Positions 12,652 to 20,593 of a stretch of 64,000 nt of DNA are shown one piece after another. The stretch comes from Psilocybe cubensis (Eukaryota), in NCBI GenBank assembly GCA_017499595.2, contig CM038999.1, forward strand, positions 1,798,001 through 1,862,000, in the 5' to 3' direction. Each line of letters starts with the position of its first letter. Positions within the stretch are counted from its first letter, which is position 1. Both the position numbers and the translations under genes were made by a program. Below the pieces are notes generated by a model, which saw only the letters and a list, made by a program, of their open reading frames with translations, made no database searches and was not told the origin of the DNA.

Positions 12652-13857
12652 ATGCAGTCTTCCTCCCAGTACACGCGACCGACACTTCCACCTATTCGCG
12701 ATCTGTTCCCAGGTGAACTTGACATATTGTCTACTATTGTGGCCGTGACTCAACTCTTTCCCCGTAGATGAACTCGCCAGGCGTCCCAGTTTACAAGGAT
12801 CGCCATCTATGGCATTGGCAAAGCTGCGAGTCAGCGATGAAGATCACGATGATCCTTCCTCTCACAGTCGCTCTATGTCAAGAACATCTTACAGACCAGG
12901 CAAATATCCTATTTTTTTTTCTTATTTTGGCCGATACTTATGTATGGGTAGGATACTCAGAACCAAACATTAATTCTCACAGAGCTACATCTGATAGAGA
13001 ATCCCATCATCTTCCAAGATTCGACGCACAATATCCTACGTCGCATAACCGGACAGAGTCGCCTTTTCTTCGAGAAGCACCCTCGACGGGATCTTCTTCG
13101 AGATCAACCCATGGCGATTTGCCTGACACCTATGATGCCCACAACCATTATTTACAACCTCGGCATAGACATACTGTACTGCAGCCATATGATTACCGAG
13201 ATTCTGTAGCTCTCCATCATCCGTACAGCTCTACTGCTCTGCCTCGTCATAGGTCCGAAACTTCTAATTCTGAACCACCCGCAACATGGAACATTTCAAC
13301 GACTATTCCGAGAGGCAATATTGTCGAAGACGATGAACGTACTCCTGTGGCTCGCTTTGGTTCTGATATCGTGCACAACGGGCCTAATTCTTCGGAGGAA
13401 AATGGTGGCTCTGCCAAATATGAATGTTCATATTGTGGCAAAGGTTTCAACAGACCTAGCAGTTTGAAGGTATTTGTGATAGCTTGTCTAATCCCATCGT
13501 AACACTCATTTTGTTTTAAGATACACCTTAACAGCCACACTGGAGAGAAACGTGAGTAGTTTATTCCCTCATTTTAAATGAAATAAAAGCAAGCGCCTGA
13601 TGCCTTACATATTTTTAGCCTTTGTTTGTCCAGTGGAAAGCTGTGGGCGCAGCTTCAGCGTTCTAAGTAATATGCGGCGTCATACCCGCGTTCACGCGAC
13701 GGTCCCGTATTCGGAATCTCATATTGTTGACGACGTGTCTTCATCATCAGCCATCCCGGAGTCTTTATCCCGAAAATGGCATCGCCGTCGAGATAGCAGT
13801 GTCTCTACATCGAGCAGTGGTAGAAGTAACAGCATTTCTTCGACCGAAGAAGATTAA
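12652..13857 (+). CDS. C2H2 zinc-finger transcription factor (two fingers)
   Basis: N-terminal LPPIRDLFP motif. YECSYCGKGFNRPSSLK|IHLNSHTGEK|PFVCPVESCGRSFSVLSNMRRHTRVH. Intron 12900-12951 needs a GC donor to keep frame. Confidence 0.9.
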
Positions 13858-14529: not shown

Positions 14530-17500
14530 TTACATAGAAATAGCACGGCCCAGCCCCACTTCTCGTGTTTCTCGAACGACTGGGCGCCCCCTTACAGTGC
14601 CCTTGACAGGCTTGAGGTCGTGTAAGGCGTCAAATGCTTTGTCGGCTCTGGTATAATCCAATGTGCGAGGACTCTTGTGCGTGAAACCAGCAAATGCTAA
14701 AGCCTTCCGTACGTCCAAAATTTCTGCGCCGTGAACCTTATGTCGAAGTAGAGGATCTTTGGTAGCATCTGGAGGGGCGCCATTGGCAGGTGCTAAAGGC
14801 TTGAAACGTAGAATGATTGAGTAAACTTTGCAGTGAAAGTGGAATTTGCCTGATCCATGTTTACCTCAGCAGGAATATCGTCGTCAAAATGGCGCGTGTC
14901 TTCAGGACTCGCAAGTTCCGGGCGGTAGGGCGCAGGGTAACGATGTATATTCGCCCAATCGATGCCTTTGAACCAAGGATGGGCCTATGCCTAACATTGA
15001 AGGGATTTATGAATGAATGCGAGAGCGCAGAGACGGACCTTGATGAGGTGCGCTCCGTCACCTTCTGAGGAAGTTAACTGTGAAACAAACCCACTTCTCC
15101 GCGCTTGAACGACCATGGAGTCGGGCCGCAGAGTAGAAGATGACGTTTGAGAACCCAATCGATCCTCCGGTTCGCAAAGCAGTTGTTGCATGAGGTTGAC
15201 ACCCTCAAGGGACACCTTCGGCCGAGAGGGAAAACGTAGGGATTGCTTCCAGTTCAATATCTTCTGTCTAGTGACATGCCGCTTGATGTGAAAATCAGGA
15301 ACACTTCCACATGGTTTCCACATAGATACACTTACAGAGTTACTAACAAATGGCGGGAATCTATTACATGGCTGTAAGGCAGGTGTAGGGGAAGCAATAG
15401 CAAAAACTGACCCATATAAGCATTCGAACATGATAACACCAAGACTCCACCAATCACAAGAGTAGGAGTAGCCATGACCTCTAATCACTTCTGGTGACAC
15501 TGACAAAACGTCAGACACAGATTTGAGTATGAGTGAGTGGACTCACTGTAGGAATTGGTACCACATCTGATTAAAGCCCGACTCAGCTTCGTGCCATTGC
15601 AAAGAAAGGGAATGAAACTGTACATACACAGAGTAGGCTAACTATAACTCTGAATGAGACCTGTTTCTTATTATGATTGACTGCCAAATCGTACCTTTCT
15701 TCGGTTTTTCTCGCGCCATGTAAATATACCCCCTTCCCCCTCGCCACCTCCCATTAGAAGTTCGACTTCCTTGGGATCCATTCGTTTGGTCTTTCTTCCG
15801 TCAGCGATACCAATAGGGTCTTCGAGGTCTATACCGTGCTTGTGGAGCAGATGTAATCTCTGTTGTTCATAATCTGGAACAGTGATTTATTTAGCGCTTA
15901 TCAATGGAAGATTGAAACGAAACATGACCCACACGAAGTATCATGGGCCCAATGGAGATCAGTTCTGAATGGACGGTTAGAACACTGAAGCGCCAGATAG
16001 AATGTAGCGAGGGAAAGACTCACGCTAAGCCGAAATCGCTGAGCTTGATGTGTCCTTCTGGATCAAATAAAAAGTTCTGTCGGCAAAGAAATATAGATCA
16101 AATGTGTATGAGCGTTCCATAGAATACGCACATCTGGTTTAATGTCACGATGGATAAACCCGTGGCGATGACAGCTTTCTATCGCGAGAATCATCTTACG
16201 AGTTCAAGGTTAGTCTCGAGGGGTATGGAAATAATGTGGAATGGAAAGTGGTTACCTCGGCAACATAGAATCTGGTAAAGTCTTCTTCAAAGACATCCCT
16301 CTCTATCAGAAGGTTTAGCAAGTCTCCCCCGCCCATGTATTCCAGGACCTGAGCAAGAATGGTGAATTTAATAACACGAAATGAAATCGATATTAAAAGG
16401 GGCCGAGGTCGGTAATCTTGGGAACATAAATTGTTGATACTGACCAGATAAAGGTGGTCGCGGTCCTGAAAGCTATAGTAAAGCCTTACTATCCACTCGG
16501 CACCACCCGGGGTGTGAACCAAAGACGCAGATTTGAGGACATCGCGTTCAGCACGGACGTGGCCTTCCTGGCCTTTCCTCAACATGTCAGCTTTACGCAA
16601 CTAAGAATGACGTTCAGCACATAGTCACTACACCTAAACATGCTACCCACCTGCTTCATTGCGTAAAGACTACCAGTTGACTTCTCTCTCACGAGAGAAA
16701 CGACGCCAAACGCACCTTTAGTTGAATGGTGTTAGACAGCACGACGAGGTTGATCAAAAGAAGTGAATTCACCGTGCCCAATGGTCTTTAGCTTTACAAA
16801 CGAACTAGCATCAACTTTTTGCCTTCTTTCTCGCAAGTAATCGGTCTCGTTTTGCCTCCATCGAGCCCGAAGTTGCTCCTTCTGTAGGTGGGTTAATTGC
16901 ATCTCAGCCATATCCTTTTCCATAGCCAGTTTTCTTTGTTCTCGCGATGAAGGATGTCGGAAGAGTGGAAAATATAAATTCTCAAAATAAATGCGGGCAG
17001 CCACAGCTTTTTCCAAAGTTGCAAGGGATGGTGATATAAGTCTCGGTGGTTTTACAACCTGTACAGTCTCTAACGACGAGTTCGGATCTTGATCATCCAC
17101 TTCTTGAACTTCAGGATGAGATCTAAGACCCCCCAAACGAAAAGTAGAATTTCCAGCTCTTCCTCCTGGAAGGCCTTCTGGGTAAGAGGAAGTAAAAATT
17201 ACATTCTCCCTGGCGGCTGTCGTGAGAGAAGAGGAAGTGGCACTGGTGGTACTCATTCCATTTACGACGTGAAGCTGCCCAGAAAGGGGTCCATCCAGTC
17301 TACCGCCTTGAGACGGTTTGAGAGCGCTGACCACTTCGTTGATAGCCTTTTCTTGATTCCTTTGTCTGATATAATTCTTGATCGGGTTTGCCCAGTGAGG
17401 ATCTTTGGATTGTTATTAGAGACTGAAGAGTGGGCTAGAACGGTCGACTAACCTCCAAGCTTTCCAACACCATCTGGACCCCAGCGCGTTAGAAGAGCTT

Positions 17501-18015
17501 CAAGCTGGTCTGCATCGGAGGCATGTACGAGATGACTGATTAAGTCGCGGTCAGAAAACAAAGTAAAGATGACTCTAAGGATCGTACACAAATCCTGTCG
17601 GTTTGGACACCATGTCTTTGCTGACACGCCGTCCTCTTTTGGGCATAGCCCGCGTAGTTGGGGTGGTATCCAACTCCTCATATCTAGGACCAGCAACAAC
17701 AGGCTCAGGAGGGGGAGCAGCAGTTTTCCAGAGTAAACGAGATGGAGAAGGAGTAGGAATCATGGCTAAGAGGTCATAGAAGCCTTTGTGAAGGAACGTT
17801 CCGGCTGGAACAGATGTCGTCTGAGGCTCTTCGTAGTGGTCCGATGGAGGATAAGGTGCGTGTGGATGGTACGGGGAGGGTATCATATAGGGGTCGTGAA
17901 AAGAATAGATAGCATTAGGTATTGCAGAGGTATACTGATCTTGCCATGAGTGCACAGGGGTGACCTGGGCAGGTGGAGACGGTAAAGGACGCTGCCGACG
18001 GGCAGGGGTAGCCAT
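14530..18015 (-). CDS. AGC/NDR-family Ser/Thr kinase (Cbk1/Orb6-related) with an N-terminal CRIB-like motif
   Basis: Mob-binding NTR (ATLEKAVAARIYFENLY...ETDYLRERR). Catalytic motifs IGHGAFG, HVRAERDVL, HRDIKPDN, DFGLA, LAYSVCGTNSYMSPE and CDWWSLGVIMFECLYG. Hydrophobic motif AFAGFTH. Confidence 0.93.
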
Positions 18016-19146: not shown

Positions 19147-20593
19147 ATGACGAGCCCCAACAACAAAGATCGATTCTATACGACTGTAGGCAAATCGCGT
19201 CGAAGCTCGCCAGGAGATTCACAAAATAGCCACGGTGCTTTATTTCAGACGGGACAGGGTGGGCGACCAGTGCTGCCTCCTCTTGCTAATAACAGCCCAC
19301 CAACCTCACGTTTGACAGGTCTGTTCTCTCCATCCAATGTTGAAATATCGTCAAACTCAATTTCACTATCTTCACCGTGTACAGTGCCCGCTGGATATTC
19401 TAATGCGTATACACAGCCGCGTTCTGCTCCCAACAAGATTGGTTATGAGCTAAACCCACAAGTTCTGTACGGTACTCCTTACCAAGCAACGAGCGCCTGT
19501 GAGTAGACGCTCATATTGCCATGATTTTTAAACCCTTTGATTTCATTCATATCTTTTTTACAGCGCCGCAATTTCCGACCGGTTTTGGCAACTATGAAAT
19601 GCATGACCGATATTCTTCTCCCCAACCTTCATATCCCGCGTTTCCGTCTAGGTCTTCAACGCCTAACATGTTAAATCCAGCAGATTCAAGAAGGCTCCCT
19701 CCGTTGTCGACATCTACTACTCCTCCTTTAGAGCGCTGGCAGCAAACTTCCTTTATGCCACAGCAACCTGCTAACTTCTTTGGTGCTTCTATTCGTTCTC
19801 CGACTGCCTCTTATCCCTCAGCATATGTTCCCTACTCAAGTGGGAACCACGATGTATATCCCTATCATATACAAGCTACGCATGACCACCTCTCTTCTAT
19901 AAATCCTCAGGGTCATGCGCATGGACATGGACATGGGCATGGACACGGACACGGACACGGGCATGGGCATGGACACGGACACGGACACGGACACGCTCCG
20001 ATGTTCGACGACCCGCGATCTACTTCGCCTTATAGCCGCGGCTCAGGATCGTCTCATCCTCCCCCTCCTCCACGAAATTACTCTCCTCCGCCGGTCTCCC
20101 CCACGTCTCCAGTCGAAGAACCAGCAATCAAAAAGAAGAGAAAACGTGCTGATGCCGCTCAACTCAAAGTCTTGAACGAAACCTACAGCAGAACTGCCTT
20201 TCCCTCAACCGAGGAGCGCATTGCATTGGCCAAGATGCTCGATATGTCAGCACGCAGCGTGCAAATATGGTATTATCCATAGACAAGCCTATAACCGTTT
20301 CTATACTAACGATGTAGTGCAGGTTCCAGAATAAAAGGCAATCGATGAGGCAAACCAACCGACAGTCATCGACTGTGGGATCTAGCTCTCACCACCCCTT
20401 CTCGATGCAAAATCAGCTTGATCCTATGACTGAGGATCTTGTTGCTCACCCCCCGTCCGGTTATGATACCGGGTCTGGAGGAATGGGGGACACGATGTAC
20501 TTGACATCCCAAGAGGCTTCTCGATCCCATGCTCACTCTCAACACCACTACCACCATCATTCTTCTTCATCTCATCGAACACCCCGCGATTGA
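19147..20593 (+). CDS. Homeodomain transcription factor with a His-Gly repeat
   Basis: KKKRKRADAAQLKVLNETYSRTAFPSTEERIALAKMLDMSARSVQIW|FQNKRQSMR (intron inside WFQN). Long Pro/Ser-rich N-terminal region. Confidence 0.93.
19911..19994 (+). repeat. Coding hexanucleotide repeat (GGRCAY)n encoding a Gly-His tract with 14 His
   Basis: ggtcatgcgcatggacatggacatgggcatggacacggacacggacacgggcatgggcatggacacggacacggacacggacac. Confidence 0.95.

Follow-up and report, generated by a model that had tools for sequence, protein, structure and literature searches.

A CRIB core divided by an intron in an NDR/LATS-family kinase of Psilocybe cubensis, a candidate effector of Cdc42 and/or Rac

Introduction

Could a mushroom kinase of the NDR/LATS family take its instructions directly from the Rho-type GTPases Cdc42 and Rac? 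The question is raised by a gene on the minus strand of a 64,000-nucleotide (nt) stretch of Psilocybe cubensis DNA (contig CM038999.1 of assembly GCA_017499595.2, positions 1,798,001 to 1,862,000; hereafter the window, whose own numbering is used below). [quoted passage not shown] In fungi, the NDR/LATS kinases that have been characterised respond to Mob cofactors and to kinases acting upstream of them. MRCK, an AGC kinase, bears a CRIB at its C-terminal end. The fungal CRIB effectors named in the available part of PMC8847673 are PAKs and Gic proteins. Among the papers listed by searches of open-licence PMC and bioRxiv, a scope that leaves aside subscription journals and theses, none was found to describe a CRIB for Puk1/STK-21 or for any NDR kinase of fungi.

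We report that the spliced gene encodes a kinase of a third, little-studied fungal clade of the family, apparently the Puk1/STK-21 lineage, and that its N-terminus holds a conserved CRIB core. The reading that we prefer, with a probability of about 0.65, is that this CRIB recruits the kinase to patches of active Cdc42/Rac, where the standard NDR switch would then activate it.

Gene structure and splicing of the CRIB core

The gene (14530..18015, minus strand) runs from an ATG at 18015 to a stop at 14530; its 17 exons, separated by 16 GT-AG introns of 47-96 nt each, form an open spliced frame of 853 amino acids. The junctions of the kinase are visible in contigs from two sequencing runs, X1 and X2 (contig span 14445-18113), in which all 16 introns are removed. 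Intron 1 (17536..17587, minus strand; 52 nt, phase 2) lies inside codon V143 and divides the CRIB core. It has GT..AG borders and a CTGAC branch site 19 nt upstream of its 3' end, and its retention brings a stop after 146 amino acids. In the contigs of both runs position 17535 is joined directly to 17588, exactly the junction that had been predicted to unite the two ORF fragments. X1 and X2 are two samples of one study whose RNA status was guessed by a tool, no run being recorded as RNA; we call their contigs transcript-derived because every intron is gone at GT-AG borders. Introns are kept in the contigs of X3 and X5. Around intron 1, 30 open in-frame GT/GC-AG splices are formally possible.

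The nearest named homologue is that of Psilocybe cyanescens, with 90% identity over exon 3. In the unspliced gene calls of seven homologues, and also in P0100, a translated intron interrupts the position of intron 1.

The CRIB core and its conservation

The core (V136-S137-x-P139-x-x-F142-x-H144-x-x-H147; 17523..17610, minus strand, intron 1 included) reads V136-S-K-P139-T-G-F142-V-H144-L-V-H147 once spliced, with KRGRR just before it. Compared with the CRIB consensus I-S-x-P-x(2-4)-F-x-H-x-x-H-V-G (PMC8847673, as excerpted), it shows five identities and a V instead of I at the first position, and the terminal V-G is replaced by A148-S149 (H-A-S vs H-V-G). The prediction of a consensus motif is borne out with this qualification, that it applies to the core only. 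Its limits, drawn at 17500..17625, had been set slightly short around a motif that is itself present: 17631-17505 encodes the peptide, and the basic patch lies at 17640-17626.

When the N-terminal 290 amino acids were shuffled 200,000 times, the strict pattern [IV][SG]xPx(2-4)FxHxxH turned up in 8 of the shuffles. Of the 120 Agaricomycete homologues examined (120 listed of 224 found), 109 have it; in 7 of the 11 that do not, the gene call contains translated intron at the same place. Across the 105 rows of alignment A2, 83 of them close Agaricomycete homologues, the core is close to fixed (V/I136 105/105, P139 105/105, F142 101/104, H144 104/104, H147 104/104). The 35 rows of alignment A1, some of them fragments without the kinase domain, leave P139, H144, H147 and K168 as the sole invariant columns.

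A comparison with WASP gives these positions their meaning. The WASP residues listed in the available part of PMC6166713 as costing more than 70-fold in Cdc42 affinity when mutated, I238, P241, F244, H246 and H249, map in register to V136, P139, F142, H144 and H147, and the five equivalents are near-invariant from agarics through Blastocladiomycota. Mutation of WASP V250 and G251 costs ~20- and ~10-fold (same source), and it is at these two lower-cost positions that the departures from V-G to A-S fall.

The surroundings of the core are conserved as well. The basic patch and lead-in K126-K133 (KRGRR, V131, S132, K133; 17616..17640, minus strand) had also been noticed in the original prediction, and in the 120 homologues R129 is kept in 112/116, R130 in 110/117 and K133 in 114/117; V131 and K133 are in register with WASP I233 and K235 (PMC6166713, in part). 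The core is followed by an extension peculiar to the clade, A148-K179 (17377..17522, minus strand), which crosses intron 2 (17452-17403) and comprises a helix at 151-160, W161, a G-K-L stretch and W174, as seen in alignment A2, the AlphaFold2 model and the complex model described below. It stands where PAK and WASP have V-G-F/W-D and the switch region, and is unlike the remainder of the Pfam PBD model; in A2 its conserved columns include W161 (103/105), K168 (103/105) and L158 (98/105). AlphaFold2 places helices at 151-160 and 173-198 with a low predicted local distance difference test score (pLDDT, about 50-70), as would be expected of a motif that folds upon binding.

Family-level searches see little of this. 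Scanned with the Pfam hidden Markov models, a 70-residue stretch around the core matches PBD as its sole family, and at a sub-threshold score. No PBD match was found in 12 full-length Agaricomycete orthologues or in the 7 unspliced ORF pieces scanned, this locus is not among the 9 matches of a genome-wide PBD search, and an ESM Atlas search gave no usable match.

An intact NDR/LATS kinase

The second half of the prediction, an intact NDR kinase downstream of the motif, holds in all its parts. The N-terminal regulatory region (NTR), a putative Mob-binding helical hairpin recognised from the Cbk1 alignment and predicted helices, spans residues ~296-366 (16816..17028, minus strand), and its R324 and R327 (RxxR), E356, R361, R363 and R364 match residues discussed for Cbk1/Dbf2 in the available part of bioRxiv 10.1101/242115; the column of R363 is variable (R in 64/104 rows of A2). 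The kinase domain (residues ~372-729; 14970..16800, minus strand), delimited by alignments and Foldseek, is of the AGC type nearest NDR/LATS and has its catalytic residues intact (K401, E420, D502 of HRD, DFG 520-522), together with a long activation-segment insert. The hydrophobic motif F800-A-G-F-T804-H (14677..14694, minus strand) aligns with the FIGYT motif of Cbk1, and T804 is T in 100/102 rows of A2. S598 and T804 align with the autophosphorylated activation-loop serine and the hydrophobic-motif site of Cbk1. A search with P. cyanescens protein P0001 as query gives Cbk1 (E 8e-107) as the best solved relative, then NDR1 (6e-89) and, behind these two, MRCK/ROCK, and the top Foldseek matches are NDR1 (6bxi) and Cbk1-Mob2 (5ncl).

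S598 is carried by a 14-nt micro-exon (15628..15641, minus strand), placed by the gene model, the contig letters between the joints and the Cbk1 alignment. The activation segment is assembled from this micro-exon (15641-15628) and a further one of 20 nt (15566-15547, minus strand). Several public orthologue gene models have no recognisable activation loop, and mis-splicing at the micro-exons is the probable cause.

Among known systems, Cbk1/COT1/Orb6 share the NTR, the activation-loop serine, the insert and the hydrophobic motif, and Cbk1 is the best solved relative; however, they form a separate clade, have no CRIB and read GTPDY where the clade of the Psilocybe kinase has GTNSY, GTNNY or GTSQY. 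GTPDY or GTPNY is found in Cbk1 and LATS. This differing activation segment hints at different substrates, and because of this hint a RAM/MOR role should not be assumed. Dbf2/Sid2 and animal LATS/Warts belong to the same family and have the same NTR arginines, whereas the LATS rows examined hold no CRIB and a separate Dbf2-like gene is present in the genome. PAK and MRCK resemble the Psilocybe protein in joining a CRIB to a Ser/Thr kinase, and the spacing and lead-in of its core match WASP 233-249 (PMC6166713, in part). WASP and PAK (Ste20/Cla4) differ in having V-G-W/F-D and another extension after the core, and the Psilocybe kinase is NDR/LATS, not STE20. Membership of PAK was rejected, as there is neither a STE20 kinase domain nor a full PBD with its inhibitory switch; so was membership of MRCK, as the MRCK/ROCK score lies far under those of Cbk1/NDR1.

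A third fungal clade

The trees started from a set clustered at 50%, of which the 150 best representatives were taken; 9 of these were dropped as fragments, leaving 141 plus 6 added rows. FastTree was run on the NTR and kinase domain, with the CRIB region left out, and IQ-TREE on hand-picked subsets of 60 and 30 rows (LG+G4 or FastTree models throughout). Paralogues from the P. cubensis genome entered as exon pieces joined with X, and Dbf2 as a single row on a long branch. In the FastTree result a branch with support 100 splits 78 rows from 69 Cbk1/NDR and LATS rows; the clade has support 100 with 60 rows and 100/100 with 30 rows in IQ-TREE. Its union with fungal Cbk1 is rejected by the approximately unbiased (AU) test (p-AU 0.0005), which disposes of a Cbk1 duplicate, and union with LATS (p 0.33) or Dbf2 (p 0.38) is neither rejected nor supported. 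A quick 60-row tree placed LATS as sister (Shimodaira-Hasegawa-like approximate likelihood ratio test 94), a grouping that the careful tree did not uphold; in the best careful tree the clade is weakly joined to all NDRs (73/48). These trees put the kinase into the third NDR/LATS clade of fungi, one that is pan-fungal.

As had been suggested, the clade is separate from the two Cbk1-like genes of the same genome (C4:1828273, L010; C7:1362693, L011) and from its one Dbf2-like gene, which we take to be such from similarity and signature motifs. The label of basidiomycete paralogue did not survive: both clade and motif reach chytrids, Blastocladiomycota, Mortierellales and Saitoella, and the Pezizomycotina members appear to be Puk1/STK-21. 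A CRIB-like pattern occurs in 24 of the 42 non-Pezizomycotina clade rows (21 strict), many of the misses being N-terminally short, and in 0/36 Pezizomycotina clade rows and 0/69 Cbk1/NDR/LATS rows. Thirty tree representatives were looked up by name. The carriers include Rhizoctonia, Kwoniella, Sporobolomyces, Puccinia, Cronartium, Saitoella and Podila, as well as Sorochytrium, Blastocladiella, Dinochytrium, Entophlyctis, Batrachochytrium, Terramyces and Globomyces, so that beyond Agaricomycetes the motif is found in Pucciniomycotina, Saitoella, Mortierellales, Blastocladiomycota and chytrids. Several chytrids have 2-3 tandem copies, and among 19 distant proteins scanned 4 (from 3 chytrid species) exceed the PBD cut-off, 6 match below it and 9 do not match.

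Probably the ancestor of the clade already had the CRIB, which chytrids multiplied and Pezizomycotina lost. Such a loss is the simplest reading because Saitoella and all deeper lineages carry the motif.

The link to Puk1/STK-21

The Pezizomycotina members of the clade appear to be the ascospore kinase known as Puk1 in Fusarium graminearum (FGRRES_01058), STK-21 in Neurospora (NCU03242) and An-Stk21 (AN10485), an identification drawn from sequence features and not from accessions. Neurospora crassa protein P0448 lies inside the clade (support 100), as do other Pezizomycotina rows (100/100), and its gene model omits the DWW stretch of subdomain IX. In the portion of PMC4817773 available, PUK1 and NCU03242/STK-21 are described as having UAG codons that are edited to UGG in perithecia and masked by a false intron, the edited codon as genomically fixed in M. 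oryzae, and puk1 mutants as having ascospore defects. Because the DWW omission matches this description, P0448 is taken to be NCU03242/STK-21. D[WY]WS is missing in 68 of 120 Pezizomycotina proteins, and Pyricularia retains WW. From partial text, PMC10776026 places PUK1 orthologues in Basidiomycota and reports their loss from unicellular yeasts, and PMC3591445 presents An-Stk21 as an extra AGC/NDR kinase of A. nidulans with a viable deletion.

Puk1/STK-21 and the Psilocybe kinase appear to share one supported clade, but the Pezizomycotina proteins have no CRIB (0/36 clade rows; 0/120 proteins, best profile E 1.2), and Puk1 is perithecium-specific and needs A-to-I editing, whereas the Psilocybe gene encodes WW in the genome. 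The clade itself was already known, and its studied members, if rightly identified, are without a CRIB. In the excerpted Cryptococcus kinome supplements (PMC5052723), UM02741, NCU03242T0, FGSG_01058T0 and ANID_10485 gave no row. The C. neoformans kinase table there (supplement 2, in part) gives the NDR label to CBK1, DBF20 and RIM15 only. The third kinase may have been lost from Cryptococcus neoformans or labelled otherwise, though Kwoniella has it.

A model of the complex with Cdc42

Residues 121-190 of P0001 were modelled with Ceraceosorus Cdc42, GTP and Mg. Both proteins are stand-ins: this Cdc42 is 94% identical to the Cdc42 exon of the genome itself, and the P0001 fragment differs at one residue. 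The complex scored 0.83, a pass, against 0.43 for the best of three controls; the pass mark had admitted 51/78 solved complexes and 2/108 mismatched pairs in a microbial calibration, and 71/105 solved and 2/126 unrelated pairs in a eukaryotic one. Runs share at least 69% of contacts, with a partner pLDDT of at least 61. In the model V136 contacts Cdc42 residues 44/46/170/173, P139 contacts 42-44/23 and F142 contacts 40-42, which repeats the contacts tabulated for WASP I238, P241 and F244 (PMC6166713, in part) in the canonical CRIB register. Residues 153-167 also touch Cdc42, and contacts end at 167.

Proposed mechanism and its alternatives

In the recruitment reading, the disordered N-terminus would carry a true CRIB site, to which GTP-loaded Cdc42 and/or Rac would bind at the growing cortex or septum. 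The basic patch would steer the approach, V136-H147 would pair with the beta2/switch I strand of the GTPase, and the helix after the core (L154, L157, L158, W161) would cover switch II, as the complex model suggests. Binding would bring the kinase to the GTPase patch; there, by analogy with Cbk1/Dbf2 and WASP, a Mob cofactor would sit on the NTR, and phosphorylation of T804 by an upstream STE20-type kinase together with S598 autophosphorylation would turn the kinase on. Cdc42-like, Rac-like and Mob genes are all present in the genome.

Several points weigh against this reading. V-G is absent from every clade member shown, and V in place of I at the key first position may mean weaker binding; F142 is substituted in a rust and in one chytrid sequence (A2). 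Binding may survive one or two variations in the core of a CRIB protein, and the core by itself, though needed, is described as falling short of what high affinity requires (PMC8847673, in part). The Pfam PBD match of the 70-residue stretch reaches 14.9 bits against a cut-off of 21.3 (E 0.034) and covers model positions 1-14, the core only, and a PDB sequence search with the same stretch returned no solved CRIB protein and one unrelated match (E 2). The complex pass may reflect memory of solved CRIB-Cdc42 complexes; it would speak for likeness, not for binding by this copy, and does not distinguish Cdc42 from Rac. It was obtained with stand-in proteins and with ligands unlike those of the calibration set, and its 0.43 control involved an unrelated protein. 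Finally, the Pezizomycotina clade members evidently work without the motif.

An unlikely alternative, which is compatible with recruitment, would be PAK-like autoinhibition: the CRIB and extension (A148-K179, with helix 173-198) would fold onto the kinase domain or NTR until released by Cdc42/Rac, making the GTPase an allosteric activator and not just a locator. The extension is conserved like the core (W161, K168), some of it reaches past the interface modelled with Cdc42, and WASP is regulated in this way (PMC6166713, in part). However, the AlphaFold2 model gives the region pLDDT values of about 45-70 and no readable contacts with the kinase, ~100 poorly conserved residues separate the CRIB region from the NTR, the chytrid repeats retain just the core and first helix, and nothing in the region resembles the part of Pfam PBD that covers the PAK switch.

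Less probable still is a CRIB-derived motif that binds another Rho-family GTPase, or a non-GTPase partner reading the H-x-x-H-A-S-D-helix unit. The systematic loss of V-G with gain of a clade-specific helix and the sub-threshold Pfam score fit such a change of partner, and the complex pass is silent on which family member binds; yet the invariant positions are exactly those that contact Cdc42, at canonical spacing, and the core of the genome's own Cla4-like CRIB is near-identical. A chance resemblance or splice artefact, which the shortness of the motif, the guessed RNA status of two samples from one study and the 30 formally possible splices might invite, is very improbable and was rejected, being largely refuted by the exact junction in both contigs, the 8 hits in 200,000 shuffles and a conservation that crosses fungal phyla and extends to tandem repetition in chytrids.

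Other features of the locus and genome

A second conserved N-terminal block, G72-W96 (17728..17802, minus strand), has most columns at 0.9-1.0 in the 120 Agaricomycete homologues and is weak or absent outside Agaricomycetes; its TPSP run could hold candidate proline-directed phosphosites. A further block, A108-E113 (17694-17677, minus strand), is conserved in Agaricomycete orthologues, and neither block has a Pfam match. Of the neighbouring genes, read from their ORFs, one is presumably a C2H2 zinc-finger gene (12768-13857, plus strand) and the other, which includes a His-Gly repeat, a homeodomain gene (19503-20282, plus strand).

Elsewhere in the genome, in a numbering that puts the window on C2 at 1798001-1862000, four Mob-family loci were found, two in tandem on C6. 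Eight near-identical Rho-type GTPase exons lie at ~7-10 kb spacing in C6:223686-290532 (L033-L039, L044), which reflects either a segment repeated in tandem or an artefact of assembly. At C10:705305 and C10:1162675 (L014-L017), separated by 457 kb, are two Cla4-like PBD loci with identical scores, and in C1:4361890-4362720 a distance of 760 nt separates two CRIB-like copies.

Implications

A broader picture can be offered only tentatively. The clade might represent a third Hippo-type kinase, possibly the true LATS counterpart, wired through its CRIB to Cdc42/Rac. Tandem CRIBs in chytrids would then act as a multivalent sensor of GTPase density, of which mushrooms kept a single site, and filamentous ascomycetes would have dropped GTPase control as Puk1 turned into an enzyme of the sexual stage with RNA editing as its gate.

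If the recruitment reading is true, Cdc42/Rac would have one more kinase output in mushrooms, rusts and chytrids, an NDR kinase with a CRIB that is missing from model yeasts and most of whose members Pfam annotation overlooks. It would also suggest what the Puk1/STK-21 family, which has so far been linked just to ascospore formation, may have done ancestrally.

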